Both the position numbers and the translations under genes were made by a program. Shown here piece after piece: positions 42,907 to 57,364 of a stretch of 64,000 nucleotides of DNA. Each line of letters begins with the position of its first letter. The stretch's first letter is position 1. A model generated the notes under the pieces. It was not told where the DNA came from. It searched no databases and saw only the letters and a list, made by a program, of their open reading frames with translations. The stretch comes from Eubacteriales bacterium (GTDB lineage Bacteria > Bacillota > Clostridia > Oscillospirales > CAG-382), in contig JAZTXJ010000093.1 of the NCBI GenBank assembly GCA_045636285.1, positions 1,127 through 65,126 of the forward strand, in the 5' to 3' direction.

Positions 42907-43717
42907 AAATACCTTTACCGATTACAAAAACAGTTATTAAGGAAGCAAGTGCAATGATTATAAACACAAAAACGTTTGAAGTATCACCCGGTTCGGGTAT
43001 TTCGTTAACGTTACCATCATTTTCTGCTTCGGAAACGCTGAAAATGCATACAGGAGGAACTATAATCGTTTCTTCGGTAACTGCGCTTACAACATACCTG
43101 CCGCCCGATTCAAGCGATATAGACACTTTTCCGTCTTTATCTGTAATATAATCGTTTTTTTCTCCGTTTATAGTTATAGCCGCGTCCTTCAAGGGCAAGG
43201 TGATAGAATTCCACGATTCATCAAAGCCCGCAACGGATAACGTTAAGGTTATCGATTCGTTTTCCTTTGCATCTACTTTGTTGACATCGAAAAACGAATA
43301 GGAATCCGACCAGCCGAGCGTATCGGTATATACAAAAGCAGAAACGAGATCGCCGCTCTTAACGGGATCTGCAAGACTCCACGCAGAAGCATTATTGATA
43401 TAATAGCCATAACTGCCCGAGGTGTCGCCCCAAAGCTTTACGATAGAAACACCGAATTCGCTTTCAGCAGAAGCATATCCGCTTTCTGCTCCGCCTTTAT
43501 AGAATGCATCGTGTGCCGCCACGAGCGTATCGTTTATTGTAAGAGCTCCGTCATCATCGATATCGGTAACGGTAACCTTTTCATAAGTTACTGCAAGAGC
43601 GCCCTTATCGGATATATTTACATATACCTCTGCTTTTAATTCTTCTGCGCTTGCGACAGTAACGCACGTCGAAAATACTATAATTAGACAGATTAATATA
43701 TAAGTGATTTTTTTCAT
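42896..43717 (-). CDS. DUF4430-domain surface protein with an Ig-like domain and a C-terminal TM anchor
   Basis: Signal peptide 'ILICLIIVFSTCVTVASA'. 'GVSIVKLWGDTSGSYGYYINNASAWSLADPVKSGDLVSAFVY' (DUF4430-type). 'DKDGKVSISLESGGRYVVSA' beta-sandwich. TM plus 'GKGIYER'. Confidence 0.7.
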   Translation of the reverse strand: MKKITYILICLIIVFSTCVTVASAEELKAEVYVNISDKGALAVTYEKVTVTDIDDDGALTINDTLVAAHDAFYKGGAESGYASAESEFGVSIVKLWGDTSGSYGYYINNASAWSLADPVKSGDLVSAFVYTDTLGWSDSYSFFDVNKVDAKENESITLTLSVAGFDESWNSITLPLKDAAITINGEKNDYITDKDGKVSISLESGGRYVVSAVTEETIIVPPVCIFSVSEAENDGNVNEIPEPGDTSNVFVFIIIALASLITVFVIGKGIYER

Positions 43718-44427
43718 TGTTTTTTCCTTTCAAATTGTTGTACGGCAAACAAGCCGTATTTCTTCTTGATTCTTAAAAGTTTGTTTCCAAACGGTTTTGC
43801 AAGCAAGAACACAAAAACAACGTTAGAGACCGCATATTCAACCGTAGTAGGCAACGCGGCAATAACGGTTGCGATATATCGCGTAAGATTAAAAGTATTT
43901 TCCGCCCAAACCGTCGCCCAGACGTCCATCGTCAAGGAATATAAAATTCCCGAAAGTCCTGCATAAACGCATAGTACGATTCTGTTTTTACGCAAAAATA
44001 CACCAAATGCACCCGCCGTAAATCCGATTAATCCCCAAGCAAACATCTGGAACGGAGTCCACGGACCCTGCCCGAAGTAGAAATTGGAAATCACGGCAGA
44101 AACGGCGCCAACCGCAAACCCCGCTTCTTTTCCCAACCATACAGCCGATATTACGGTTATTGCGGTTATCGGCTTAAAGCCGGGTAACCACGCAAAAACA
44201 AATCTGCCCAATACAGACAAAGCGATCAGAACCGCCAACACGGTAAGCTCTGAAGAGGTTACGTCTTTTCTGTCAAATGCATAAAACAGCGGTACACAGG
44301 CAAGTAACGCAACGCAAAGCGAGATCCACAAATAATACTTCTCTTTAAAAAGCACAGCGCCGAAATATACCGTAAGCGGAATAGCAACAAGCAAAATGAG
44401 CAGTGTTATTATACTTTTGTGCTTCAT
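43714..44427 (-). CDS. ECF transporter substrate-specific (S) component
   Basis: 237 aa with about 6 TM helices. It sits directly between the EcfA and DUF4430 genes with 1-4 nt overlaps. Corrinoid specificity is inferred only from the riboswitch. Confidence 0.7.
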   Translation of the reverse strand: MKHKSIITLLILLVAIPLTVYFGAVLFKEKYYLWISLCVALLACVPLFYAFDRKDVTSSELTVLAVLIALSVLGRFVFAWLPGFKPITAITVISAVWLGKEAGFAVGAVSAVISNFYFGQGPWTPFQMFAWGLIGFTAGAFGVFLRKNRIVLCVYAGLSGILYSLTMDVWATVWAENTFNLTRYIATVIAALPTTVEYAVSNVVFVFLLAKPFGNKLLRIKKKYGLFAVQQFERKKQ

Positions 44428-46106
44428 TATTGCTCACCTACCCGTGCGTTCAATCTGCACATTTCCGCCACGTGCTCACAAAGAAAGGTATTTTTGTAAT
44501 AACCGCGCGCTATTCGGTTTGCGGCAGTGGTGTAGAAGCTGTTGTCCGAAAAGAATCTCGACGTAATATCCGAAGAAACGATCTGTCCGTCAAAGAACAA
44601 GCTGCATTTATCCGAAGTCGTAGCAGAAAATTCCACGTCGTGCGTTACCGTGATAACCGTAACGCCCTCATCGTTTAAGGTCTTTATTATTTCGCCCAGA
44701 ACCATTTTTCCGGTTGCATCGATCCCCTTTGTAGGCTCGTCGAGCAACAAAATTTTCGGATCTGCAAGCAATACCTTCGCAAGCGCCGCCTTTTGCTGTT
44801 CGCCTCCGCTCAGATCGTAAGGGTGATTATCGAGAAGATGCGAAATCGAAAGCTTATGCGAAATTGCTTTTATTCTTTCTTCGGTTTCTTCCTTTGAATA
44901 TTTCAAGGTTTTGCAAATTTCAGCAAGGTCTTCCTTCACGGTCATTTCAACAAAAACCGTCTGGGGATCCTGCGGAAGAAAAGCAACGTTTTTCACGTAC
45001 AAAGAACCGTTCTTATAATCCGAAATCGTTTTTTTGTTTATATAAACTTTTCCTCTGTACGGTTTTAAAAGACCTGCAATAATATTCAGGGTTGTCGTTT
45101 TGCCGGTACCGTTACCACCCAAAATACAGTGGTGCTCACCTTTATTGATCTTTACCGAAACGCCCTTTACAACGTCATCGGATTCACGCTCATAACGGAA
45201 ATATACGTTTTCCAGCTCAACGGCAATTTCACTTTCAAATTCAGAAAGCGAATGGACGAATATGCCCTTCTTGTTTGCATAGTTAGTTCTTATAAATTCG
45301 CGTCCGTCGCGCACGGTTATAGGCGCTTTTCCTTTTCCGCCGAGCATTTCGAATATTCTCATTGCGGCAGGAAGTGAATTCTTTATAGGATGATTAGCTT
45401 TATCCGCAAAAAAATCTGTAACGGTATTCGGTGTGCCGTTAAAGGCTATACCGCCTTGCTCCATAATCAACACGCGGTCGCAAATCGGAAAAACCTCTTC
45501 CAAACGATGCTCGATAAGCAAAACGGTTATACCGAGCTCTCTGTTCAACTTCTGCAACGTTGCGATAAAGTTTGAAGCGGCTATCGGATCGAGCTGTGCG
45601 GTAGGTTCATCGAGCATAAGTATTTTGGGTTGCATAACCATAACCGATGCAAGATTAAGAAGCTGCTTTTCACCGCCCGAAAGCTCGCTCGTTTTTTTAT
45701 AAAACCAATCCTGAATGCCGAAATAGCTTGCCATTTCAGCCGTTTTTCTTCGAATTTCCTGCGTTTCAAGCCCAAGACTTTCGAGCCCGAACGCAAGCTC
45801 GTGCCAAACAAGATCGGTAACTATCTGGCTTTCGGGATTTTGCAAAACGAAGCCGATCTCCGAAGCAGATTGACGGTTGTCGATTTCATTTCGAGGAATG
45901 CCTCTATAAATAATCGAACCGTCAATTTCTCCGTAGGGCGCCGTTTCGCGCTTCAAAAGCTTCAGCAGTGTAGATTTTCCGCAACCGGATTCGCCGCAAA
46001 GAACCACGAATTCGCCTTCTTTTACGCTAAACGAAACGTCTTTTACTGCATACACAGAAGATTCGTTATATCGAAAACTTAAATTTTCGACCTGTAATAT
46101 TTCCAT
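44427..46106 (-). CDS. ecfA: Fused tandem ECF/ABC ATPase (EcfA-EcfA')
   Basis: Two Walker A sites ('GESGCGKST', 'GGNGTGKTT'), two signatures ('LSGGEKQ', 'LSGGEQQ') and two Walker B sites ('MLDEPT', 'LLDEPT'). Confidence 0.92.
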   Translation of the reverse strand: MEILQVENLSFRYNESSVYAVKDVSFSVKEGEFVVLCGESGCGKSTLLKLLKRETAPYGEIDGSIIYRGIPRNEIDNRQSASEIGFVLQNPESQIVTDLVWHELAFGLESLGLETQEIRRKTAEMASYFGIQDWFYKKTSELSGGEKQLLNLASVMVMQPKILMLDEPTAQLDPIAASNFIATLQKLNRELGITVLLIEHRLEEVFPICDRVLIMEQGGIAFNGTPNTVTDFFADKANHPIKNSLPAAMRIFEMLGGKGKAPITVRDGREFIRTNYANKKGIFVHSLSEFESEIAVELENVYFRYERESDDVVKGVSVKINKGEHHCILGGNGTGKTTTLNIIAGLLKPYRGKVYINKKTISDYKNGSLYVKNVAFLPQDPQTVFVEMTVKEDLAEICKTLKYSKEETEERIKAISHKLSISHLLDNHPYDLSGGEQQKAALAKVLLADPKILLLDEPTKGIDATGKMVLGEIIKTLNDEGVTVITVTHDVEFSATTSDKCSLFFDGQIVSSDITSRFFSDNSFYTTAANRIARGYYKNTFLCEHVAEMCRLNARVGEQ

Positions 46107-46957
46107 TGCAGATCCTCCTTTAACTCAATAATCAACGGCATAAAGCAAAGTAAACCGAAGCCGATAAAAGCGATTATCGCCACAATATCCGCTTTTTGTG
46201 CTTTTATCGCGGGATAGTACGAAAATGCGAGCTTTTCGCTGAACATTCCATAAAAAACCAGAGCGTCTAAAAGAACTATCATAACAAGCATCGCAAAATC
46301 TCTTGCTTTGAAACGAAACAAAGAAAAATGCGTTCTTCCCTTTAATCCGTAACCGCGGCTTTTCATAGAAGTACCCGTATCTATCGCATTTTCAAGCGCC
46401 CAGCCAATCAGCGACGAATACGTTCTCATAGTGCTTTTAATCTTGTCGGTATATGCATCAGACGAATACATACCCATTGCTTTTTGCGAAGCCTTTATCC
46501 TGCCATAACGTTCCTTTAGCAACGGAACGAATCTGAGTGCAGACGATATAAGCAACGCAAATTTAGGCGAAAATTCTCCGAACAGGCAAAGTAATTTATC
46601 CTCGGTCATAATAATGCCGAAGCATTTAAACCAATATATTACCGAAATTACCATCAATGCTATCCCTAACCCATATAAAAACGCTTCAAGGGTTATAGGG
46701 TTTCTGTTCACAAAGAAAAGAACGGTTACCCCTTTATGCGAAAAGAAGGGATTTATTATTGCCACAAGCATCAGCATAAATAAATATACCGAAAATTCCT
46801 TAATGAATTTCGCTTTGTTGATTTTGAGAAAATAAGCCATTGCACCGACAAACGAAATCAAATGCAATATAGGGTTTTGAGAAAACATCGAAACGACAAG
46901 CACAGAGGCGAAATAAACCGCCGCTGTTATTGGGTGAAATGTACCGAAGCTTATCAT
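46079..46957 (-). CDS. ecfT: ECF transporter transmembrane (T) component (CbiQ family)
   Basis: Polytopic, about 292 aa. 'RALRFVPLL'-type coupling-helix region ('SSALRFVPLLKERYGRIKASQKAMG'). The start is ATG 46957, overlapping the stop of the upstream small ORF (ATGA). Confidence 0.85.
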   Translation of the reverse strand: MISFGTFHPITAAVYFASVLVVSMFSQNPILHLISFVGAMAYFLKINKAKFIKEFSVYLFMLMLVAIINPFFSHKGVTVLFFVNRNPITLEAFLYGLGIALMVISVIYWFKCFGIIMTEDKLLCLFGEFSPKFALLISSALRFVPLLKERYGRIKASQKAMGMYSSDAYTDKIKSTMRTYSSLIGWALENAIDTGTSMKSRGYGLKGRTHFSLFRFKARDFAMLVMIVLLDALVFYGMFSEKLAFSYYPAIKAQKADIVAIIAFIGFGLLCFMPLIIELKEDLQWKYYRSKI

Positions 46958-47169
46958 TTTCTTTTCCTCTTTCGATTTTTGGATGTTTCTGTTTTCGTGC
47001 TCTCTTTCAAGCCTGCAGACTCTAACGCTCTCGGCCACGGACCGAGAAACGCCTTAATGCGAGATCTTGTGACTTCATCGAAGTCGTCTTTTTTCGGTAA
47101 CCTATCAACCTCCCTATGCTTTTGTATGAGCAATTCTATTGCCCACTGCTTTTTCTCATCGGGTGTCAT
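46954..47169 (-). CDS. Small basic protein (71 aa) with one homing-endonuclease-associated-repeat-like motif
   Basis: GGAGG RBS 8 nt before ATG 47169. 'LPKKDDFDEVTRSRIKAFLGPWPRALESAGLKE' resembles the HNH-associated repeat (...FGSWneALeaAGL). K/R-rich tail. The stop overlaps the ecfT start. Confidence 0.55.
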   Translation of the reverse strand: MTPDEKKQWAIELLIQKHREVDRLPKKDDFDEVTRSRIKAFLGPWPRALESAGLKESTKTETSKNRKRKRK

Positions 47170-47261
47170 CAGCCATACCTCCGAAATTTAATAAATAAAA
47201 TACCCTTTAACCATACCGGTCAAAGAGTACAACAGATTTACCGCGCAACGAAAAATGTGTG

Positions 47262-47515
47262 CAAAACAAAAAGAGTGCATACACCGAGCAATGATAAATC
47301 GGTTGCACTCTTCACACCAAAGTTGTGTTAAACCTACGGAAAAATTCCAAAAAGACACGGCAGGTATCCTGACTTATGATGAAGCGGCAAATGCCGCAAA
47401 AGAACGCGCCTTCTCGGTATTAACCAATGGCACAATACGTCCTTTATCTTGTCAAATACAGTAATGGCGGTTGTTCCGGATTCGAACCGGATTCCCTTTT
47501 ACATCTACTCAGCGT
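47262..47515 (-). promoter_or_regulatory. Cobalamin (B12) riboswitch with a terminator expression platform
   Basis: On the minus strand: 'AAAAGGGAAUCCGGUUCGAAUCCGGAACAACCGCCAUUACUGUA', 'GUGCCAUUGGUUAAUACCGAGAAGGCGC', B12 box 'AAGUCAGGAUACCUGCC', then the hairpin 'GAAGAGUGCA...UGCACUCUUUUUGUUUU'. Confidence 0.85.
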
Positions 47516-47560
47516 ACAACTTTTCAAACCGTATCTTCTTAATCGGTATTTAATTTTAAG

Positions 47561-47591
47561 TGATTATAACATACTATTTTGTATTTTTCAA
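47561..47591 (-). promoter_or_regulatory. Sigma-70 promoter of the riboswitch/ECF operon
   Basis: On the minus strand: TTGAAA, 17 nt, TATAAT. Confidence 0.7.
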
Positions 47592-47611
47592 TACAATTAT
47601 CGATTTTGTCG

Positions 47612-48562
47612 CTATGCCTTCTGAATTTCTTTTTGAGTAAGCTTTACAAATTCGGTTATGGCGTTGTCGTATTTATTCGTATCGACAAACCTCAACTGCG
47701 AGTGTGCGCCGTGCTCGAACCAAACAAGCGATTTTTCGCTGTTGCATTTATCAAACAGAATCTGCGCAGTTTCGGGCAACGAATAAAGATCTTCTTTGCT
47801 GTGGATCATAAGCAGCGGCTTTTCCAACCGTTCGATAATATCGATCGGGCCGTACTTCATGGTTACGCCTATTTCCTTGCGTACCAAACGCTCTACCAGC
47901 TGAAGACAAGGAAACACAGGCTTTTTCAGCGCAATCATATGGTTTTTAAAGCTTTCGTAAAAGTTCGGGTACATACCCTCCGCAGTCATTCCCGAAAAAT
48001 AATCGGGACATTGAGGGTTTGTAAGAGCGAACATAGCGCACGAAGAACCGATACAAATTCCGTGAAGCCATATTTGCTTTACGCCGAATTGTTCGTGTAA
48101 CATTCTGCCCCAAGCAAGAATATCCTTGTGCTCATTAAAGCCGATAGAATTGTATTTTCCGTCGCTTTTGCCGTGAGCACGTTGGTCGATTGTCAAAATA
48201 TTGTATCCGCTTTTTGCATACGCTTCTGCGAAATAGTAGCCGTAGTTCAAGGCTTCGGTTCTGCCGGGTATTATAATCACGGCTTTGTCGTAGCCCAAAT
48301 CGGTGTATTCACCAAAAAGCTTATATCCCTCGTTTTCGAGCGTTAACTCCTTAATATCGGTTAATTGAGCGCGGTATTCGAGCGCAGATTCATACATGGA
48401 GCACTGTATCGGCTCGTTCACCGAACAGCTTCTGTCCCATTTTTTCTTGCTCGTGCGGTTAAGATGAATATTGAACAGAATACGCGCAACGATAAAAAAC
48501 GACCATACCGTAAATATTAAAATTGCCGCAATGCAGAGAAGCAAAATGTATTCAAGTTTCAA
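47612..48562 (-). CDS. Membrane-anchored alpha/beta-fold hydrolase with a Cys in the nucleophile elbow
   Basis: N-terminal TM. 'IIIPGRTE' (oxyanion region), elbow 'LHGICIGSS' (G-x-C-x-G), 'IHSKEDLY' (Asp), 'EHGAHS' (His). The preferred start is TTG 48562 (GAGGT RBS 7 nt upstream, 1 nt after the plsC-like stop); ATG 48595 is the alternative. Confidence 0.75.
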   Translation of the reverse strand: MKLEYILLLCIAAILIFTVWSFFIVARILFNIHLNRTSKKKWDRSCSVNEPIQCSMYESALEYRAQLTDIKELTLENEGYKLFGEYTDLGYDKAVIIIPGRTEALNYGYYFAEAYAKSGYNILTIDQRAHGKSDGKYNSIGFNEHKDILAWGRMLHEQFGVKQIWLHGICIGSSCAMFALTNPQCPDYFSGMTAEGMYPNFYESFKNHMIALKKPVFPCLQLVERLVRKEIGVTMKYGPIDIIERLEKPLLMIHSKEDLYSLPETAQILFDKCNSEKSLVWFEHGAHSQLRFVDTNKYDNAITEFVKLTQKEIQKA

Positions 48563-48563
48563 A

Positions 48564-49208
48564 TCATTTACCTCGCTTTGCTTGTACTCGTGCATCGAGC
48601 TCGTTTTTGAGCTCAACCGCCTTTGCACGAACCATATCATTAAGCGCAACAATTTCTTCACGCGTCGGATTCAACGAGGTACAGTAATCGGAAAGATAAA
48701 TCTTTTTGCCGATAATAATATGTACCCTCTTGAAAAAACCGTAATTTCCGTCCGTCATAATCGGGATTATGGGGACGTTTGCGCGAAGTGCGATCATAAT
48801 ATAGCTCGGCTTGAAGTCAAGCATCGAGCCGTCTTTGGTAATATGCGCTTCTGGATATATCTGTACGAGCTTACCTTTTTCGAGAACCTTTACGCTTTCA
48901 TCGATAAAGCGCATACCCATAATATCTCTGTCGGAACGAATACCGCCAAAGCAACGCATTGCCCAATGGAAGAACTTTCCCCTTTTGAATATCATTTCCG
49001 CCATAACGACGAAAAGCTTTCTTCCGGGAAAGAGAAACAAGTTTACCATATAGTCGAATACGCTGTAATGATTCGATATTATCAGCGCACCGCCCTTAAC
49101 AAAGCGGTTTGATGATTTTTTGTCCTCATAATATGTTTTTCTTTTAAAAAAGAGAACCTGAAACGGCCATGCGGATATAATCGCAAGCCAACGGAAAAAG
49201 CCGTACAT
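48564..49208 (-). CDS. 1-acyl-sn-glycerol-3-phosphate / lysophospholipid acyltransferase (PlsC family)
   Basis: 'ISNHYSVFD' (HX4D motif), 'IYPEAHITKDG' (motif III). 214 aa. Confidence 0.85.
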   Translation of the reverse strand: MYGFFRWLAIISAWPFQVLFFKRKTYYEDKKSSNRFVKGGALIISNHYSVFDYMVNLFLFPGRKLFVVMAEMIFKRGKFFHWAMRCFGGIRSDRDIMGMRFIDESVKVLEKGKLVQIYPEAHITKDGSMLDFKPSYIMIALRANVPIIPIMTDGNYGFFKRVHIIIGKKIYLSDYCTSLNPTREEIVALNDMVRAKAVELKNELDARVQAKRGK

Positions 49209-49209
49209 A

Positions 49210-51141
49210 TTATTTAATCAAATCCTTTATTAATCTTTCGAAATGGTTGACGGTATAACCAAACTTTTCAACGTCGTAATCGCTTCCGAAATCAATTTTC
49301 AGATTGAAACGGGTGTCAAGCTCATTTATAAGTGTGAAATAATCAAGACTCGTTCCGCCCAGATCGTTCATAAAATGCATGTCGTCGCCTATGTTTTCGA
49401 TATCGGTATCAAGAACCTTGGCAAACAATTCTCTTATTATCTGTTTGATTTCGCTTTCGGAATTCTTTTGTCCCGACTGTTCTTTTACGGGATCAAACAA
49501 ATTGATCTTTCCTTGCGAAAGAGCCGATTTCAAATATGCGCGGCTTACCTTTATCGCTCCGCTTTGCATCAACGGATCAAACGTGAATTTAATATCGTGA
49601 ATACGGTAAGACGAGGGCAACGAAGCATTACCGTTTTCAATATCTTCGATAATACGCTTCTTTTGCTCGTTAATTATTCCGTTCGGCACGCGAACAACAA
49701 GCATAAGCTTGGAACCGTCATCGTTACCTATAACCGAAAATTCAAGCGCGTCACGTATCGAAAACGCTTTTTCCGCAAGATCGGGATTTAGGTTTTCTCC
49801 GTTATCCGAAAATACAATATCGGAATAACGGCCGCTTATATAATATCTTCCGTCTGCCGAAACAGAAACGATATCGCCCGTATCAAACCAATCGTCGAAG
49901 CTTAATTCCACCTTATCGACAATGATTGTTTTGCTCACAGAGGAGCCCCTGACGCAAAGCCTGCCGTCTTCCCCGATTCTGTATTCAAGCGAATCGAACG
50001 GTGTTCCGATAGAGCACAGCATTCTTTCTTTGGGTGTTTTTCCGAGTTCGACAGAGCATATACCGATTTCGGTCATACCGTATCCGTTGCAAAGCGGATA
50101 GCCGATTGCATTCATCATTTCTACCGCAGACGCTTTTATATAGCTTCCGCCGGAAATACAAAAACGAATACTTTCACCGAGAAGCTTATATCGCATATCG
50201 CGGAACATCAGCGAAGCGATTTTTGCGCCGAGCTTGGGAGAGATGTTCTGAAGCTTCAAAGAGATTACGGAAGCTTTTTTGAACTTATTGCGAGTTTTTT
50301 CGTCTTTCTGCGATAATTCCTTGTTAATCGCTTTTTCAAGAGCGTGCCACAATATCGGAACCGAAAAAACGTGCGTAACTTCGTGATTGCGAATGGTACG
50401 CAAAATATTTTCGGGCGAGAGGTCGTTCAACAGCACGAACGTAGCACCGAGAAACGAATACCACAACAACACCGCTTCAAGTCCGAAAATATGGTAGAAC
50501 GGAAGAAACGCAAGCGTTTTCATCGTGCCGTTATACGTTCCGATAATATCGGGATTGGTTTTTATGATTTTTTCGAGATTAAGTATTTGTTCGGAAACCT
50601 GAAAACCGGTATAAATACAGATTTTTTCCTTTAAAGAAGTTCCGCTCGTGGAAATCGCGAAAATATCGGAAAATGCGGGAAGCTCCTTTTCGGGATCAAC
50701 GCCGATTGCTTCAAGCTCGGAAAAGCTTACGGTTTCGGTGCTGTAATTCGTGTTTGAATTTACGGTAATTACACACCTTGCACAAAGCGTATCGAGAATG
50801 CTCTGAGTAAATCCCTGCGGTTGCTTTAAATTAACAAGATAAGGCTTGTTGCCGCTTTTAAGAATCGCCCAGAAGGCAATAATCCATTCTGCTGAATTTT
50901 CGCCGTGCAGTCCGATATATTCCCCGCATACAGAAAGCTTTTGCATTATCGCGCGGGCAATTTGATCTACCCTTACGGCAATATTATTATAGGTATATGT
51001 GACTTTGCGAGTCATTGTCGGGCATTCGATAAAAACGTTTTCACCATAGGAAGTGATTATCGAATAAATATCGCAAAGTGTTTTTTTGCTTTTTTTCAGC
51101 TTATCTGCATTTTGAAGAATAGTCTTTTTTACTTTATTCAT
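49210..51141 (-). CDS. Acyl-AMP ligase (ANL superfamily) fused to a C-terminal carrier-protein domain
   Basis: 'AISTSGTSLKEK' (A3-like), 'NGYGMTEIG' (A5), 'WFDTGDIV' (A7), C-terminal 'FMNDLGGTSLDYFTLINEL' (phosphopantetheine Ser). Confidence 0.82.
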   Translation of the reverse strand: MNKVKKTILQNADKLKKSKKTLCDIYSIITSYGENVFIECPTMTRKVTYTYNNIAVRVDQIARAIMQKLSVCGEYIGLHGENSAEWIIAFWAILKSGNKPYLVNLKQPQGFTQSILDTLCARCVITVNSNTNYSTETVSFSELEAIGVDPEKELPAFSDIFAISTSGTSLKEKICIYTGFQVSEQILNLEKIIKTNPDIIGTYNGTMKTLAFLPFYHIFGLEAVLLWYSFLGATFVLLNDLSPENILRTIRNHEVTHVFSVPILWHALEKAINKELSQKDEKTRNKFKKASVISLKLQNISPKLGAKIASLMFRDMRYKLLGESIRFCISGGSYIKASAVEMMNAIGYPLCNGYGMTEIGICSVELGKTPKERMLCSIGTPFDSLEYRIGEDGRLCVRGSSVSKTIIVDKVELSFDDWFDTGDIVSVSADGRYYISGRYSDIVFSDNGENLNPDLAEKAFSIRDALEFSVIGNDDGSKLMLVVRVPNGIINEQKKRIIEDIENGNASLPSSYRIHDIKFTFDPLMQSGAIKVSRAYLKSALSQGKINLFDPVKEQSGQKNSESEIKQIIRELFAKVLDTDIENIGDDMHFMNDLGGTSLDYFTLINELDTRFNLKIDFGSDYDVEKFGYTVNHFERLIKDLIK

Positions 51142-52471
51142 TTTCCGACTTATGTTTTCCTATTAATGCTATTGATTTGGGGAGCAGGAACGCGAGAAGG
51201 AATGCCGCGGCACAGAAAAACGCTACGATAAGCGTCATATACTGAACAAGATCGGATTGCTTAAGATAAACAAGAATCAATCCTGTTGCGCTACCTGCGG
51301 AAACACCTTCAAACAAGCCCTGAACGGCAAAATACATCGAAGAAGCACAAACACCGCTTTTTTTGTTTTCTTCCGCTGCAAGATGCGCAGGCACGGTATA
51401 GCTGACCGAGAAGAACGCACCGATAGCAAACGAAACGATAACGCTACACAAAATCGCCACGGGAAGCATTATGGATTTATCGAGCATGCGGCAGAAGAAC
51501 ATCAACGACATACCGAGCGCAAACATCAATATTACGTATTGGTATGCAAACTTCAAGCCCTTCTTTTTTACAACCTTATTGTAAAGAATAAGCGTAAGCG
51601 GTACAGGCACAAAGGATGATGCCATAACAAACGTCATATTAAGTCCTGTGGTCGAAAAATATTCGTTAATACCGCCAAGGAAAAGCTGGAGGCCCGTATT
51701 GAGCACGGCGTGGGTACAGAGCCAGAAGATAAAATGCTTGTTTTTAAAGGAATATACGAGAGATTTAATGAAACCGACACGCTGTTCGGGAACAAAGCCT
51801 TCACGGGTTACGACACCGTTGACCGTAGATTCTTCTTTTATCATAAACAACGGGATAAGCATCGTTGCGGCAAGAGGCAAGAAGATAAGAGCGACAAAGC
51901 GAATATTTACGCCCATGCTGACAAAAGCGGGTACGAGCGCGAATCCGAGCGAGAAATAAACAACGTCACAAACCGATTTTATGTTGGACAAAAATACGCG
52001 TTCGTGCTCGGTTTCTACAATTTCGGCAAAGGTCGCATAATACGTAACCATAGTAAGCGTATAGGAAGCATAATAAACCGCAAGAAGCAACGCAAACCAA
52101 ACGGTGTTGATAGTGCTTGCTTCGTTGTTCAAGGGGCACAAGAAAAGCAGATAAGCGATCAACAAGGGTACAAGACCGATAAGTATCGCGGGACGACGTC
52201 TTCCCCATTTTGTTCTTAAATTGTCGGTCAAGGAAGAAAGAGGAATGTCGATAATTCCGTCGAATATCTTAATTGCGAATACCAAAATCGCCCACAGACC
52301 GCCAATAACCAAATCCTTGTTCGCGTACGTCCAGGATTCGACGTTGGATTCAAAGCCGCCGACCAATAATGCACTGCAAAGGTAGGAGCCTACGATAAGG
52401 TTCAGCATATTAAGACCGAGTCCTGCACAGCCATACAGTACCATTTGCCATTTCTTTTGCAAAAGTTTCAT
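51134..52471 (-). CDS. MFS/GPH-family transporter
   Basis: About 12 TM helices. 'LSSLTDNLRTKWGRRRPAILIG' is the GPH-type D-x-x-x-x-x-G-R-R-R-P loop 2-3 motif. Confidence 0.8.
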   Translation of the reverse strand: MKLLQKKWQMVLYGCAGLGLNMLNLIVGSYLCSALLVGGFESNVESWTYANKDLVIGGLWAILVFAIKIFDGIIDIPLSSLTDNLRTKWGRRRPAILIGLVPLLIAYLLFLCPLNNEASTINTVWFALLLAVYYASYTLTMVTYYATFAEIVETEHERVFLSNIKSVCDVVYFSLGFALVPAFVSMGVNIRFVALIFLPLAATMLIPLFMIKEESTVNGVVTREGFVPEQRVGFIKSLVYSFKNKHFIFWLCTHAVLNTGLQLFLGGINEYFSTTGLNMTFVMASSFVPVPLTLILYNKVVKKKGLKFAYQYVILMFALGMSLMFFCRMLDKSIMLPVAILCSVIVSFAIGAFFSVSYTVPAHLAAEENKKSGVCASSMYFAVQGLFEGVSAGSATGLILVYLKQSDLVQYMTLIVAFFCAAAFLLAFLLPKSIALIGKHKSENE

Positions 52472-52485
52472 GTTTATCTCCTTTT

Positions 52486-54132
52486 CTATTCGAGAGTCAA
52501 AATCAAATTATAAAAATCATCGTTCACATCGATAACGTCAACCTCTGTGAGAGGACTGTGATTGTCAACGTAAGCTATAATCGCTTCTTTTATGTTTTGA
52601 GGTACGGATTTATCGGCAAAAACCGTTATTATTTCCCTTTCACGCTTTGAAAACGATTTTTTAAGCGCAGAACCAACAACGTAAGCGAGCGAATTGCCGT
52701 TTGCAAGAATCTTGCGATCGCTCATCATTGCAATAAAATCTCCGTTTTTAACGTTGTGCTCTTCAAAATCGGCGTTTTTGGTGGCGCGCGTAATGATAAT
52801 AGTATCTATATCGCTTAATGCCGAGTTGAGAGTTTTAGCAAGCTCATCAATATCGTCGATTTCAAAATCCACAAGCGGAAGCAATGCATAGCATTCGCTG
52901 TCGGTTTTTGTTTTGATAATCCGTACGTCGATTCCTTCGCAAACCGAAGATGCCTGACGAACGGTAAGAACGGTATTTTTGTCGTTTGCGAAAACAATCG
53001 CTTTTTTCGTTTTTGCGGCTTCGAAAGCATTCACAAAATCCGAAGCGGTAGGTTGATATCCGTGACTGCCGTTGATAACGACATCGGCGCCCATTTCCAA
53101 GAAAAACCTTTCCATATCCGAATTATGCGCCACGGTTATCAAAGAAAAGTTCGTAGATTCATTTTCGGAAACGGTTATGTTCGGCGAAAAGCTTTCCTTA
53201 TGCTGAACACTCATGTTTTCTATTTTTACCGTAAGAAACTCGCCGTAGGTATGGCAATGCTTCATAATCGCTTCGGGGGTATGGGAGTGTATGTGAAGCT
53301 TTACTTTATCTCCCTGCGGCGATATAACTATCGAATCGCCGAGCTCCGAAAGCTCGTTTCGAAAATCCTGCAAGGAAAACGAATCTGCTCTGAAGGTAAG
53401 CTGAATCAACAGCTCGGTGCAATATCCGTATTCAAAAACGCTGTTCTTGTTAAATCCCGAATAATCGTGTTCGGCTTTATGCTCGGGTGTTTGGTATTCA
53501 AAAACGGGAAGGCTTTCTCCTTCGAGATATCTTCTCATACCTTCAAAGACATAAATAATACCGGCACCGCCGCTATCAACGACGTTTGCGCTTTTTAAAA
53601 CCGCCAGCATATTCGGCGTATTGTTCAACGTTGCCTTCGCTTTTTTCAAAAATTCGCTTATAACCTCGTTCACCGAATCAAGACGGTAATCATCAAGCTC
53701 GGCACGAACGTGTTCAATTGCTTCACGTATAACCGTAAGAATCGTACCCTCTACGGGATTGCTTACCGATTCATAAGCGCAGGCAACACCGTTTTCGAGC
53801 GCAGAAACCAGTTCGCAGAAATCAGCCGATGCTTTTTCGTAAAACGATTCGGAAAGTCCGCGAAAGAACTGCGATACGATTACACCCGAATTTCCGCGGG
53901 CGCCGAATATAACCGCGCGCGCAAAGGTTTTAGCCATTTCGCCAAGCGGAATATCGGAACCTTCTATTGCCGCAAATCCGTTTTGGAGCGTGAGCAGCAT
54001 ATTCGTGCCCGTATCTCCGTCCGGTACGGGAAAAACGTTCAACGCATTAACTTTATCTTTATATACAGCAAGACTGCGTATTCCGTAATCAAGAAGATTG
54101 TAGAAATGCAATCCATTGATGTTATATATCAT
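52486..54132 (-). CDS. yloV: DAK2-domain fusion protein YloV (fatty acid kinase FakA-type)
   Basis: 'NVFPVPDGDTGTNMLLT' (Dak2 phosphate-binding motif). 548 aa. It lies directly downstream of a DegV gene. Confidence 0.85.
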   Translation of the reverse strand: MIYNINGLHFYNLLDYGIRSLAVYKDKVNALNVFPVPDGDTGTNMLLTLQNGFAAIEGSDIPLGEMAKTFARAVIFGARGNSGVIVSQFFRGLSESFYEKASADFCELVSALENGVACAYESVSNPVEGTILTVIREAIEHVRAELDDYRLDSVNEVISEFLKKAKATLNNTPNMLAVLKSANVVDSGGAGIIYVFEGMRRYLEGESLPVFEYQTPEHKAEHDYSGFNKNSVFEYGYCTELLIQLTFRADSFSLQDFRNELSELGDSIVISPQGDKVKLHIHSHTPEAIMKHCHTYGEFLTVKIENMSVQHKESFSPNITVSENESTNFSLITVAHNSDMERFFLEMGADVVINGSHGYQPTASDFVNAFEAAKTKKAIVFANDKNTVLTVRQASSVCEGIDVRIIKTKTDSECYALLPLVDFEIDDIDELAKTLNSALSDIDTIIITRATKNADFEEHNVKNGDFIAMMSDRKILANGNSLAYVVGSALKKSFSKREREIITVFADKSVPQNIKEAIIAYVDNHSPLTEVDVIDVNDDFYNLILTLE

Positions 54133-54166
54133 TTATTGCGATTGCTCCTTGTTTTTTTAGGGGCTT

Positions 54167-55099
54167 TTATTTTCCGAGTACTCTGTTCATTGCTTCTTTT
54201 TCGCAAGAAAGGTCTTCCGAAACGCTTTCGCCGAGATAGTATACGCCTACCATACCCGGTCCGATATTGGCACCGCAACCCGAAAATACCTCGGAAAGAT
54301 ATATCTTTTTGGGTGCAAGCTCCGTTGCAACCTTTTCTTTAAGCGCATTTGCATAGGCTTCTCTGTCGGAATGAACGATCAATACGTAATTGTTTTCGAT
54401 ATCCTTAGCCGTTTCTTTTACATATTTAACGGTTGTATCGAGCGCATTGCCGATTCCCTTGACCTTTGCGATAACGGTGGTATAGCCTTCTGCGTTGCAA
54501 TCGCCCATAGGCTTTACACCCGCAAAGCTGCCCATTATGGCTTTACCCATAGAAATTCTTCCGCGTCGCGCGATAAAGAACAAATCGTCTATCGGGCCCA
54601 TTTGATGAACTCTGCTCTTGTTTTGTTCGAGCCATTCAACAATTTCTTCGAAGGACGCTCCGTCCTGCTTCATAATATGCGCATATATTGTCAAAAGACC
54701 TATTCCGCCCGACATACGCATCGAATCAACACAGTGAATCTTAATTTCGGGATAAGCAGTCGCAATACGGTTTGCGGCTTTTGATGCAAATACAAAGGTC
54801 GAGCTGATTTTCGAAGAAAGCGAAATGCTTATTATCGATTCGCCTTGCTTTGCAAATTCTTCGAAATATGCATAATACTCTTCCTCGTTAAGAGGAGAAG
54901 TAGAAATATTGTTTTTCTTATCCGAAAGAGCACTGTAAAAATCAGTACGGGAGATATGTTGCCAATCGAGTGTTCCGCTTATATCCCTGCCGTCGCCGAG
55001 ATGTATATGACCGAGAGCATAGCTTTGCATACCGATATCTGCGCGAACAGCTTCGGAAAGGTCGCAAGTAAAGTCTGCAAGAATCACAAATTTTTCCAT
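54167..55099 (-). CDS. DegV-family fatty-acid-binding protein (FakB-type)
   Basis: 310 aa; N-terminal 'FVILADFTCDLS' and 'ISTSPLNEEEY' fit DegV. GGAGA RBS. Confidence 0.72.
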   Translation of the reverse strand: MEKFVILADFTCDLSEAVRADIGMQSYALGHIHLGDGRDISGTLDWQHISRTDFYSALSDKKNNISTSPLNEEEYYAYFEEFAKQGESIISISLSSKISSTFVFASKAANRIATAYPEIKIHCVDSMRMSGGIGLLTIYAHIMKQDGASFEEIVEWLEQNKSRVHQMGPIDDLFFIARRGRISMGKAIMGSFAGVKPMGDCNAEGYTTVIAKVKGIGNALDTTVKYVKETAKDIENNYVLIVHSDREAYANALKEKVATELAPKKIYLSEVFSGCGANIGPGMVGVYYLGESVSEDLSCEKEAMNRVLGK

Positions 55100-55147
55100 A
55101 AGAGCTTCTCCAAACGAATATATTTAAAGAATGTCAAATTCCGTTTC

Positions 55148-55176
55148 ATTATAGCACACAACAATACATTAATCAA
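55148..55176 (-). promoter_or_regulatory. Consensus sigma-70 promoter for the degV-yloV-...-hydrolase string
   Basis: On the minus strand: TTGATT, 17 nt, TATAAT. Confidence 0.65.
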
Positions 55177-55235
55177 CAATTTTTCGTCTTTTTTCTATCC
55201 TTTTATTGCTATTTGTTAATATTTTGGCAACAAAT

Positions 55236-55272
55236 AGAAAAACACCCGCAGTAGTTTATTGCTACCGCGGGC
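55236..55272 (-). terminator. Intrinsic terminator after the EEP gene
   Basis: On the minus strand: CCCGCGGTAG...CTACTGCGGG followed by a T-run. Confidence 0.7.
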
Positions 55273-55288
55273 GCATACCTCTATGTAG

Positions 55289-56110
55289 TTATTTTGCAAT
55301 ATATTCGAATTCGGCATAGAGAAGCACGTGATCGGAATGATTCTTCTGGAAAATACCGTGACCGCCTTCAACCAACGTAAATTCCGAAGAGAAACAGATA
55401 TTATCGATCTTTCTATCTCCTTCGGGATGAGTAATATACGCCGTTTCGGGTGTATTGATATAAGAAAGAGGCTTCAAAATTTCGAATTCTTCATAACCGT
55501 CAACGTTGAAATCTCCGACAAGGATGCAGTTTTCAACATTCTTTACGTTATCGGAAACTATTTTGAATTCATCCGCGCGAATAGAATCGCTCGCTATTGT
55601 AAGGTGAGTGTTGAAGAAATTGATTTCCGTACCTTCAACGTCTATTTTCGCATAAGTCAAAAGACGGCGTTCAACGCTCGATCCGTCGTTGAGCTCAATT
55701 TCCTTTGTTTCGAGTATCGGGTATTTGGAAAGTATTGCAGTGCCGTATTCTCCGCCGTCGTAATTGATACATCTGAAGAAAGCATAATACTGCATGCCGG
55801 TATATTCCTGCAAGCGCGCCATCGTATCGGATTTTTTGGAGCGGTTGCAAAATTGGTCAACCTCCTGTATGCCGACAATATCCAATCCGTTTTCGATAAT
55901 ATCGTCTGCAATAAGCTTAAAATCCCAATTGATTTCTCTGCCGTTAGCAATGTTATAAGAGCCGATTTTTAATTTTTTCGTCGTCACTGTGCTTATCTCG
56001 CTTTCTTGACTGATTGTCGATGATTCGTCCTTGTCCTCTGCACAACCGCTTATCAAAAGCGCACTCGAGAACAAAACAAAAACAAGAAACAAGGAAATGA
56101 TTTTTTTCAT
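55289..56110 (-). CDS. Endonuclease/exonuclease/phosphatase (EEP) family lipoprotein
   Basis: Lipobox 'LISGC'. 'IGSYNIANG', 'VGIQEVD', 'GDFNV', 'HSDHVLLYAEF'. Confidence 0.85.
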   Translation of the reverse strand: MKKIISLFLVFVLFSSALLISGCAEDKDESSTISQESEISTVTTKKLKIGSYNIANGREINWDFKLIADDIIENGLDIVGIQEVDQFCNRSKKSDTMARLQEYTGMQYYAFFRCINYDGGEYGTAILSKYPILETKEIELNDGSSVERRLLTYAKIDVEGTEINFFNTHLTIASDSIRADEFKIVSDNVKNVENCILVGDFNVDGYEEFEILKPLSYINTPETAYITHPEGDRKIDNICFSSEFTLVEGGHGIFQKNHSDHVLLYAEFEYIAK

Positions 56111-56188
56111 AATTCACCTCGTATTGTCTTTTTGAGCATTATACTACTTTGCAGACCGTTTGGCAAGCGTTATTCTGTATTTTGGAAA

Positions 56189-57364
56189 TTAAAATTTAAA
56201 GCGCTTGGCAACCTTCGACGCTATTCTGTATATCGGACCTTCCAATTCCTTTTGTGCTTCTTTAAGCTGTTTTCTTATCTCGATATGCTGCGGGCAATGC
56301 GCTTCGCATTTTCCGCAACCCACACAGTTCGAAGCGGCAGTAGAATTACTTCGCAATGCCGTACACATAAAATATTCCACGTACGCCCAGAATCGTCCTT
56401 CGGAATATCTGCGGTTATAAGCCGCAAACGTTCCGGGAATATCGACCTTCTTCGGACAAGGCATACAGTATCCGCAACCGGTGCAGCCGACCTTCATTTT
56501 AGCGTTGATAGCCGCCAAAACCGCCTTCAGCATCTCTTCGTCCTTTCCCGTCATACTTCCGACCTCGGTATCGGACGCGGTGCTAATATTATCGAGAAGC
56601 ATTTCTTGCGAATTCATACCCGATAAAACCACCGTCACCTCGGGCTGATTCCAAAGCCAGCGGAACGCCCACTGTGCAGGGGTGTGTTTGGGCTCATAAT
56701 TTTCGAAAATACGTTTTGCTTCATCGGGCAAGCGTGTGACAAGCTTACCGCCGCGAAGCGGTTCCATTATTACAACGGGCAAGCCCTTTGAATTCGCATA
56801 GTGCAGACCGCGCCTGCCCGCTTGCGAATGCTCGTCCATATAGTTATACTGAATCTGACAAAAATCCCATTCAAACGCATCGATCAGACTGCAAAACATA
56901 TCCGTGTTTCCGTGATAAGAAAAGCCTATCTGCCGTATTTCTCCCGATGCCTTCTTTTCGTTAATCCATTCAAGAATACCGAGCTTTACAAGACGGTTCC
57001 ACGTATCGACGTCACTCAGCATATGCATAAGATAATAATCGATATGGTCGGTACGCAAACGAGTAAGCTGTTCCTTGAACTTCTTTTCAAGCTCTTCCCT
57101 GCTTTTGATAAGATAATGCGGAAGCTTTGTAGCTATATATACCTTGTCGCGCAGTGAATTCTTTTCGAGTATTTCGCCCAAAACGGCTTCGCTCGAACCG
57201 TATACGTAAGCGGTATCGAAATAATTAATACCGTTTTCGACAGCGGTAATAATTTCACGTTCGGTTTCTTTAAAATCAATACCCGTTCCCTTTCGCGGAA
57301 AACGCATACAGCCAAATCCGAGTACAGACAATAAGTTGCCGTATTTATCCTTGCGGTAGTTCAT
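56189..57364 (-). CDS. Aldo/keto reductase with a C-terminal 4Fe-4S ferredoxin-type domain
   Basis: 'LGFGCMRFP', 'FDTAYVYG', 'DYYLMH'. C-terminal 'CTGCGYCMPCP' and 'CVGCGKCEAHCP'. Confidence 0.88.
   Translation of the reverse strand: MNYRKDKYGNLLSVLGFGCMRFPRKGTGIDFKETEREIITAVENGINYFDTAYVYGSSEAVLGEILEKNSLRDKVYIATKLPHYLIKSREELEKKFKEQLTRLRTDHIDYYLMHMLSDVDTWNRLVKLGILEWINEKKASGEIRQIGFSYHGNTDMFCSLIDAFEWDFCQIQYNYMDEHSQAGRRGLHYANSKGLPVVIMEPLRGGKLVTRLPDEAKRIFENYEPKHTPAQWAFRWLWNQPEVTVVLSGMNSQEMLLDNISTASDTEVGSMTGKDEEMLKAVLAAINAKMKVGCTGCGYCMPCPKKVDIPGTFAAYNRRYSEGRFWAYVEYFMCTALRSNSTAASNCVGCGKCEAHCPQHIEIRKQLKEAQKELEGPIYRIASKVAKRFKF

Follow-up and report, generated by a model that had tools for sequence, protein, structure and literature searches.

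The 64,000-nt stretch analysed here (the window: positions 1,127 to 65,126 of contig JAZTXJ010000093.1, from an Eubacteriales bacterium of the Clostridia, order Oscillospirales) carries a string of six genes, all on the minus strand. As judged by the list of open reading frames (ORFs) and by Pfam and NCBIfam assignments, they encode, in this order, a DegV/FakB-like protein, a FakA-type kinase, an MFS_2 transporter from the major facilitator superfamily (MFS), a ligase fused to a carrier domain, a PlsC-family acyltransferase and an alpha/beta-fold enzyme with a cysteine at the nucleophile position (Table 1). Catalytic motifs are intact in all six proteins. With somewhat better than even confidence, we read the string as a single operon with which a gut Clostridia bacterium, auxotrophic for fatty acids, takes up exogenous acyl lipids and incorporates them into its membrane.

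Table 1. Features of the six-gene string and of its 5′ boundary, in window coordinates
Feature	Position	Strand	Evidence or remark
Intrinsic terminator of upstream gene, 5′ boundary of unit	55242..55274	-	13 pairs (8 G-C), then T run
Promoter	55148..55176	-	-35 TTGATT, 17-nt spacer, extended -10 TGcTATAAT
DegV-family fatty-acid-binding protein (FakB-like), 310 aa	54167..55099	-	PF02645 165.5 bits, E 2.1e-48
FakA/YloV-type fatty acid kinase catalytic subunit, 548 aa	52486..54132	-	PF02734 Dak2 + PF21645 FakA-like_M + PF13684 FakA-like_C
GPH-type (MFS_2) transporter, 445 aa (P0002)	51134..52471	-	PF13347 90.2 bits
Putative cation site of transporter, codons D71..D75 (DxxxD, transmembrane helix 2)	52247..52261	-	D71 + D75 invariant in 14/14 orthologues
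Acyl-adenylate (ANL) ligase fused to C-terminal carrier domain, 643 aa (P0001)	49210..51141	-	PF00501 127.2 bits, PF00550 33.9 bits
Codon of Ser598, predicted phosphopantetheine attachment (DLGGTSLDYF)	49348..49350	-	invariant in 14/14 sequences
PlsC-family (LPLAT) acyltransferase, 214 aa (P0003)	48564..49208	-	PF01553 74.9 bits
Membrane-anchored alpha/beta-fold enzyme, Cys nucleophile, 316 aa from TTG 48562	47612..48562	-	PF12146, PF00561
Codon of Cys170, nucleophile elbow LHGICIG	48053..48055	-	aligns with Ser of GFSMG (PDB 5g59) and GLSMG (4fbl)

Successive genes are separated by 34, 14, -8, 1 and 1 nt. The last value holds for a start of the alpha/beta gene at TTG 48562 and would become -32 nt with ATG 48595. 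TTG 48562 is preceded by a GAGG ribosome-binding site, lies 1 nt past the acyltransferase stop, fits the short N-terminus of the orthologue at locus L006 and is most likely the start. The leading promoter occupies the sole sizeable intergenic gap, directly past the 13-pair terminator. Both of its hexamers, together with a CGAAAAATTG block just upstream, are unchanged in the two closest relatives aligned (loci L003 and L006), and a hairpin is found at the terminator position in these two loci as well. Within the string, only four weak minus-strand terminator-like sites were detected, with stems of 5-6 pairs. Internal promoter-like sites lie at 51015-50986 and 48820-48793; promoter-like consensus matches were not above chance (20 versus 21.9 ± 4.8 in shuffles). 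No terminator was found between the stop of the alpha/beta gene and the next promoter (47591-47563). The original prediction, made from the letters alone, had named the same six genes in the same order, quoted two motifs in the ligase-carrier and the acyltransferase, and described gaps of -8 to +34 nt, a single leading TTGATT-17-TATAAT promoter and the lack of an internal terminator. Domain assignments and measured gaps agree with this description, the motifs are present as DLGGTSLDYF and NHYSVFD, the promoter was found with hexamers that do not vary in the two relatives, and the sites inside the string are of the weak kind mentioned above.

Directly upstream of the -35 hexamer, the block at 55177-55225 (minus strand) contains the conserved GxCGAAAAATTG and an imperfect inverted repeat (ATTAACAA / TTGTTGATTAA, about 35 nt apart). 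This block may be a candidate operator for a lipid-responsive regulator.

The first two genes, degV directly upstream of fakA, encode recognisable Fak components. The DegV protein scores 173.8 bits with TIGR00762, above the 99.7 cut-off, which places it in the DegV/FakB family with a predicted capacity to bind fatty acids, and FakA reaches 472.6 bits with TIGR03599 (cut-off 396.1), as expected for FakA/YloV. The staphylococcal equivalog models were not reached (FakA NF038248, 372.6 versus 975 bits; FakB1, 82.7 versus 350). In the host genome (G000), an 82%-complete metagenome-assembled genome (MAG) of 1.99 Mb in 138 contigs, we found one FakA and one DegV match. Because this is the sole pair detected, it is the housekeeping Fak of the organism and not a dedicated second route. 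The 'genus' to which the window belongs is very diverse, with FakA identities of 31-69%; a FakA match (E <= 1e-30) was obtained in 9 of 21 same-genus genomes, and four of the 12 genomes without one are at least 95% complete.

We searched five genomes, the host and the four behind loci L003-L006, for the enzymes that make and use acyl chains. The ketoacyl synthase (KAS) domain PF00109 (FabF) was found in none of the five, versus all 14 control genomes, and the FabA/FabZ dehydratase domain PF07977 was likewise not detected in any of the five. PlsX, PlsY, a free acyl carrier protein (ACP) and a phosphopantetheinyl transferase (PPTase) are present in each of them. The housekeeping plsC is present in a cmk-plsC-ispH/rpsA arrangement, and the host plsX abuts rnc, with fabD and fabG not between them. 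Since FabF and FabZ were not found and PlsX, PlsY, PlsC, ACP and PPTase are present, the host and its four relatives appear to be fatty-acid auxotrophs that lack type II fatty acid synthesis (FASII). They look like organisms running the canonical route from Fak through acyl-phosphate to PlsY and, via PlsX, to PlsC. The relatives of the host are Clostridia MAGs from animal and human guts. The same inventory (PlsX, PlsY, free ACPs and housekeeping PlsC in 5/5 genomes) rules out the ligase-carrier as sole acyl donor for PlsC.

Five further loci (L003-L007) carry the same six genes in the same collinear arrangement, with ligase identities of 43-75%. We extended the comparison to 27 loci, namely L003-L009 and 20 ligase matches fetched with flanks of about 8 kb. 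One or more acyltransferase genes directly follow the ligase-carrier in 25 of these loci, the two exceptions being a 2.6-kb contig and a weak 29% match. DegV and/or FakA lie within the flanks in 20/27, a homologue of the alpha/beta enzyme near the ligase-carrier in 18/27 and an MFS gene near it in 13/27. At least four gene orders were distinguished, in several families. Type A is the collinear string itself. In type B, PlsX-FakA-DegV-DegV stands beside alpha/beta, a CE4 deacetylase-like gene, ligase-carrier, LPLAT, LPLAT and LRAT. Type C consists of ligase-carrier, acyltransferases, a second ligase, an LRAT::PPTase fusion and an alpha/beta gene (Ser), followed by DegV-MFS-FakA, and at L091 the order is ligase-MFS-di-acyltransferase (diLPLAT). 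Because the linkage recurs in shuffled gene orders, the genes of the module and Fak/PlsX probably work together, and this recurrence is the strongest evidence for such a joint function. The association of Fak with a ligase-carrier, an acyltransferase, a hydrolase and an MFS, first noted at this single locus, is thereby borne out, since the same parts adjoin one another in at least four orders and several families.

The ligase-carrier was found in 37 of 401 sampled genomes of the order, distributed over 11 of 30 families. In the same sample, 197 genomes have a KAS match and 204 have none, the latter including 159 of the 324 high-quality genomes. A KAS match is missing from 30/37 ligase-positive versus 174/364 ligase-negative genomes in a hand cross-tabulation; as relatives are not independent, this pattern is an association and not a test. 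Families that almost always possess KAS (f8, f9, f14, f30, f7, f11 and f6) have no ligase.

The transporter exceeds the 27-bit cut-off of PF13347 by a wide score and falls short of the GPH model TIGR00792 (48.3 versus 231.35). Since LplT of E. coli had been suggested as its counterpart, we compared it with the LplT sequence taken, like those of Aas and PlsC used below, from the K-12 record. No similarity was found (BLASTP E 0.19), no LplT model appeared among the NCBIfam matches at E <= 0.001, and Pfam assigns the protein to MFS_2. Thus, of the two placements originally considered for this transporter, LplT is excluded; the GPH sugar symporters fit at the level of MFS_2 and not at that of the TIGR00792 cut-off. 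A search of the ESM Atlas returned generic MFS_2 clusters only. A structure model built from 14 orthologues (predicted local distance difference test, pLDDT, 82.8) matched MelB (Foldseek E 2e-9, TM-score 0.67-0.75) and MFSD2A (E 1e-8, TM-score 0.75-0.77); as the two matches are about equal, the fold does not discriminate between a sugar and a lysolipid as substrate.

In addition to the Asp pair, K68, T123, K165 and K404 of the transporter are invariant. At the motif level, to which this comparison is confined, the pattern K68-D71-D75/T123/K165/K404 parallels the cation-site residues R52, D55, D59, T121, R149 and K377 of MelB and R90, D93, D97, T154, R186 and K436 of hMfsd2a, as listed in the accessible part of PMC10013850. 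This invariant pattern suggests a cation-coupled symporter, and hence import. In the 401-genome sample, orthologues counted at E <= 1e-30 occur in 13 genomes, all of them among the 37 that are ligase-positive. The gene adjoins fakA in 11 of the 13, and fakA or the ligase gene in 12. One natural fusion of MFS and ligase-carrier (P0098), 64% identical over the whole MFS, was found in a collection of 5.8 billion proteins, and no other longer form of the MFS turned up; because the two genes overlap by 8 nt in the window, it could be a frameshift artefact.

The ligase carries the motifs LP(L/F)YHIFGL (here LPFYHIFGL), NGYGM(S/T)E (here NGYGMTE), WFDTGD, GRxSD...GENLNPD and IKVSR, which we take to be of the acyl/aryl-CoA-ligase (acyl-CoA-synthetase) type rather than the amino-acid type. 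Equivalents of A5, A7, A8 and A10 are conserved along with S598, as expected for an ANL enzyme with a carrier domain, and A3 is atypical (SGTxLKEK). Both an AMP-binding and a PP-binding domain occur in 119 of the 120 best homologues listed (query included), for which source names are generic only. Elsewhere in the host genome (G000:C48:1919-3853, L042), the gene for an AMP-binding enzyme of 570 aa precedes one for a free-standing carrier protein of 78 aa; this pair resembles the adenylation (A) protein and ACP of the Clostridia fatty-acid-amide pathway.

The acyltransferase belongs to the LPLAT/PlsC superfamily, as N46-H47-x4-D52 (NHYSVFD), R94, P119-E120 and P149 are conserved in 15 sequences. 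It remains below the cut-off of the AGPAT model TIGR00530 (54.6 versus 102.95) and scores 37.9 bits with the Aas model PRK08043 (cut-off 886). It is a paralogue of the housekeeping PlsC, with 21-25% identity. In BLASTP, 48.9 bits were obtained with the acyltransferase domain of E. coli Aas (about 25% identity), 40.8 with the housekeeping PlsC and 34.7 with E. coli PlsC. Because the housekeeping PlsC scores alike, the Aas and PlsC clades are not separable by score; NCBIfam models and direct BLASTP against E. coli Aas and PlsC were rejected as discriminators on this ground. In motif III, PlsC of E. coli and the housekeeping PlsC read EGTR/QGTR, with an arginine that is associated with a lysophosphatidate acceptor. 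The operon enzyme, unlike these, has PEAHITKDGS, similar to PEGRITTTGS in Aas, which hints at an acceptor other than lysophosphatidate.

Among longer relatives of the acyltransferase, 44 proteins of about 412-439 aa are up to 59% identical to it; those in L084 and L091 contain two PF01553 stretches and are tandem di-acyltransferases. The host genome encodes two more paralogues, of 405 and 426 aa (C1:397-1614 and C46:1195-2475; L040 and L041).

The last gene had been described as a lipase/thioesterase-like hydrolase. The esterase/lipase-like fold could be confirmed by a model of pLDDT 91, with the Pf2001 esterase (5g59, E 2.6e-15), valacyclovir hydrolase, ABHD6 and MGLL as best matches. The nucleophile, however, is a cysteine, which the original prediction had not noticed: the elbow reads G-I-C-I-G instead of the G-x-S-x-G of Ser-Asp-His hydrolases, with the Asp/His pair kept. 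Asp258 and His287 are invariant, and the nucleophile position is Cys in all six close orthologues. Of 12 wider cluster-linked proteins, 10 have Cys as well, and the other two, distant type C proteins, have Ser. Among the best 150 representatives from a library of 1.84 billion proteins, 61 have Cys, 76 Ser, 8 a gap and 5 another residue. Because Cys occupies this position in 47 of the top 50 representatives versus 2 of the last 75, the enzyme is part of a coherent Cys clade inside a Ser-hydrolase family. Alpha/beta-fold enzymes with a Cys nucleophile, such as BAAT and PHA synthase, are known as acyltransferases rather than hydrolases. A single N-terminal helix (residues 3-33) is followed by a K/R-rich stretch, so that by the positive-inside rule the catalytic domain would be cytoplasmic, where a thiol could serve as nucleophile.

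LRAT (PF04970), a second family of Cys acyl-enzymes, takes the same place in variants of the cluster. At L092 (12851-13885, plus strand), LRAT is fused to a PPTase (PF01648) inside a ligase-carrier/acyltransferase/Fak cluster, and this fusion ties an LRAT-type Cys enzyme to the carrier domain.

Taken together, these results lead us to favour, though not by much over an even chance, a system for the salvage and re-acylation of exogenous fatty acids and monoacyl lipids, analogous but not homologous to LplT/Aas. In such a system, the GPH/MFSD2A-like transporter, with its Asp pair of the cation site kept, would import or flip a single-chain amphiphile, which may be a lysolipid, a monoacylglycerol or a free fatty acid. 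DegV/FakB would bind free fatty acid for phosphorylation by FakA. The resulting acyl-phosphate would then be used by PlsY and, via PlsX, would give acyl-ACP for PlsC, all of them encoded elsewhere. In parallel, the ligase would adenylate fatty acid and load its own phosphopantetheinyl carrier domain, and from this acyl-S-carrier the operon acyltransferase would, like Aas in E. coli, pass the acyl group to a lyso-type acceptor that is not lysophosphatidate. The membrane-anchored Cys enzyme may act at the cytoplasmic face via an acyl-thioester intermediate; it would either supply Fak with fatty acid released from monoacyl lipids after their import, or move or clear acyl groups on the carrier. 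A more specific version, tentative and in our opinion rather less probable, makes the transporter a bacterial counterpart of MFSD2A, a cation-coupled importer or flippase of lysolipids or of free fatty acids that feeds both FakB/FakA and the self-contained ligase-carrier/acyltransferase pair, and the Cys enzyme a thioester-forming transacylase acting between monoacyl lipids and the carrier. If true, a transporter that takes up lipids for Fak would have been identified for the first time in a Gram-positive-type bacterium, and Clostridia that have lost fatty acid synthesis would have reinvented LplT/Aas convergently from non-orthologous parts.

A number of observations weigh against salvage. We infer the substrates of the transporter, the ligase-carrier, the acyltransferase and the alpha/beta enzyme from sequence features. 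The ligase in particular is matched best, among families as well as PDB entries, by MenE and by aryl or generic fatty or acyl-CoA ligases, and since these matches would fit another acid, a fatty-acid substrate is inferred from context; its P-loop (A3), STSGTxLKEKxCxY, is unusual yet conserved. PDB sequence searches with the transporter and with a six-sequence profile gave no match at E <= 1 or at E <= 10, Foldseek ranked MelB (sugar) marginally above MFSD2A (lysolipid), and the fusion P0098, a single protein on a single contig, is weak evidence. The housekeeping PlsC itself scores 45.8 bits with Aas, so that the operon acyltransferase is no closer to Aas than its paralogue. The phyletic data also have another side. 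The ligase was found in none of the eight other species of the same genus in the sample, and 174 genomes without a KAS match also have no ligase; the module is dispensable, clearly not required for life without FASII. A KAS match is present in 7 of the 37 ligase-positive genomes, three of these being weak ligase matches in long ORFs. The host genome is 82% complete. Finally, type B clusters, which have a CE4 deacetylase-like gene and no MFS, fit remodelling or biosynthesis equally well.

This last point, together with the LRAT gene of type B, keeps alive the alternative that the module remodels or synthesises a special envelope lipid. In that case, the ligase-carrier and acyltransferase(s) would attach a particular acyl chain to an endogenous lipid, by Lands-cycle-like deacylation and re-acylation or on a glyco- or amino-lipid; the Cys enzyme, or LRAT, would remove or transfer acyl groups, and the MFS would flip or export the product, like LtaA. 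We regard both the acylation scheme and these roles of the Cys enzyme and the MFS as possible but doubtful. Two acyltransferases accompany the LRAT-family Cys acyltransferase/phospholipase and the CE4-like gene in type B, and the LRAT::PPTase fusion of L092 points in the same direction. An auxotroph that cannot tune its acyl chains by synthesis could find remodelling useful, and aryl-polyene clusters reportedly also bring together an adenylating enzyme, ACPs and an LPLAT (PMC8253772). Against this, the MFS keeps the DxxxD pattern of Na+-coupled symporters, and its gene is flanked by those for DegV and FakA in type C, a position that argues for uptake in the service of Fak. The operon in the window has no gene for an unusual acid or headgroup, and LRAT was found in none of the five type A genomes.

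An unlikely alternative would be the production of a secreted acyl conjugate, such as a fatty acid ester or amide signal, in which the carrier is loaded with dietary fatty acid as in the OaaA/OaaACP pathway of Clostridia, the acyltransferase or Cys enzyme transfers the acyl group to a small-molecule acceptor and the MFS exports the product. Such a role would suit the Cys-nucleophile alpha/beta acyltransferases cited above (BAAT, PHA synthase), and one source names a ligase homologue 'non-ribosomal peptide synthetase'. In addition, according to the accessible part of PMC13310621, gut Clostridia make fatty acid amides from exogenous fatty acids with A, ACP and condensation (C) proteins. No condensation domain was found at any locus examined, however, and the transferase is of the PlsC family of membrane-lipid acyltransferases. 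Linkage to membrane phospholipid synthesis, in the form of PlsX, FakA and DegV, and the symporter features of the MFS also speak against secretion. The least probable explanation, to which we give very little credit, is chance juxtaposition of a housekeeping fakB-fakA pair with an unrelated sugar transporter and an equally unrelated set of non-ribosomal-peptide-synthetase-like or hydrolase genes. The MFS does belong to a glycoside-symporter family (MFS_2, with weak gph/MelB matches), the module has a patchy distribution and is missing from most relatives, and there are internal promoter-like sites, although such matches occur at chance frequency. Phyletic and synteny data contradict this explanation: the components occur together repeatedly, in different orders and families, all 13 MFS-bearing genomes carry the ligase, and the gaps between the genes range from -8 to 34 nt.

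The favoured salvage system can be compared with LplT/Aas of E. coli, with which it shares its logic. In both cases, an MFS gene lies beside genes for an acyl-activating enzyme and a PlsC-family acyltransferase, a lyso-acceptor would receive acyl groups from a phosphopantetheinyl carrier, there is gene overlap, in E. coli between lplT and aas, and motif III of the acyltransferase reads PE(A/G)xIT..GS. A rare MFS-enzyme fusion (P0098) exists here too. The differences are equally apparent. The MFS here is of the GPH/MFS_2 type, and an extra Cys alpha/beta enzyme is present. Whereas Aas is a single polypeptide working with free ACP, ligase and acyltransferase are here encoded by two genes in the opposite order, and the ligase has its own fused carrier domain instead of AcpP. 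The module is also linked to Fak and found in Gram-positive-type Clostridia. Similarity to the Aas domains is generic: the ligase matches the Aas ligase domain at the level of any ANL enzyme (24% over 135 residues, E 5e-6), and the acyltransferase at about 25% identity (48.9 bits). The proposal that an Aas-like enzyme has been split into its parts is thus reduced to an analogy.

MelB and MFSD2A (a Na+-dependent lysophosphatidylcholine symporter/flippase), the two branches of the GPH/MFS_2 fold with solved structures, are the best structural matches of the transporter, whose basic-DxxxD arrangement on transmembrane helix 2, Thr on helix 4 and Lys on helix 11 parallel their cation site; identity is 12-18% only, and the transporter has no sequence-level PDB match. 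ABHD6 (7ots), the monoacylglycerol lipases (3hju) and the Pf2001 esterase (5g59) have the alpha/beta fold and the Asp and His of the triad in common with the last enzyme of the string, and ABHD6 is likewise held by a single N-terminal membrane anchor; the nucleophile here is Cys and not Ser, and identity is 14-24%. With the FakA/FakB-PlsX/PlsY/PlsC pathway of Staphylococcus and Streptococcus, as far as described in the accessible part of PMC10848957, the host shares a DegV protein and a three-domain FakA above curated cut-offs as well as PlsX, PlsY, PlsC and ACP; in contrast to that pathway, fakB-fakA here share an operon with four further lipid genes.

Gut Clostridia activate dietary oleate with a free-standing A domain and an ACP, according to the portion of PMC13310621 available. 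OaaA/OaaACP/OaaC of Coprococcus eutactus, described in the same portion, resemble the present system in that an exogenous long-chain fatty acid is placed on a dedicated carrier in a gut Clostridia member, bypassing CoA and FASII. There, a free-standing carrier and a condensation domain of a non-ribosomal peptide synthetase lead to an amide; the present system has a fused carrier, a transferase of the PlsC family and a linkage to Fak/PlsX. In the part of PMC11416262 (2024) at hand, LplT-Aas is said to have been identified only in Gram-negatives, and other lysophospholipid transporters are said to be possible. Streptococci scavenge lysophosphatidylcholine via "unidentified transporters" (PMC6805115, accessible part), and a survey of gut lipid genes that includes fakA contains no such module in the portion available (PMC13761379).

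The original prediction had called the combination unknown as a characterised unit, and in the full-text literature searched, to which subscription-only literature does not belong, we likewise found no description of it. The operon thus looks like an undescribed way of scavenging gut lipids. Lysolipid uptake in Gram-positives is an open question, for which the operon offers clonable candidate genes: an MFS found only with the ligase among 401 genomes, a ligase that brings its own carrier domain, an acyltransferase of other than AGPAT type and a Cys lipase-like enzyme. Because 204 of the 401 genomes gave no match to ketoacyl synthase, lipids of the diet and of the host may be the source of membranes in many gut anaerobes; this bears on their cultivation and on lipid exchange between diet and microbiome.

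The genes around the string were also considered. Just upstream, 55289-56110 (minus strand) encodes a lipoprotein of the endonuclease/exonuclease/phosphatase (EEP) family with a signal peptide and the lipobox LISGC, and has its own promoter-like site (56166-56138) and its own terminator. PDB similarity is weak (EEP protein 3teb, E 2e-6; beta-hemolysin, the sphingomyelinase C of S. aureus, E 0.005), and the gene is kept at this place in the closest relatives L003 and L006 only. A surface phospholipase-C-like enzyme would make sense beside a lipid salvage operon. Two genes upstream of the string, as in L003 and L006, 56189-57364 (minus strand) encodes an aldo/keto reductase with a fused 4Fe-4S dicluster domain. 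Downstream, a cobalamin riboswitch (RF00174, 85 bits, 47342-47548, minus strand) stands behind the promoter at 47591-47563 and is the sole match of an Rfam scan of 46800-56400; a small ORF and ECF T/A/S genes come next (43714-47169, minus strand). Near the start of the window, at about 1406-1591 on the plus strand (G000:C93:2532-2717), a small ORF encodes a PP-binding, carrier-protein-like domain (24.7 bits).

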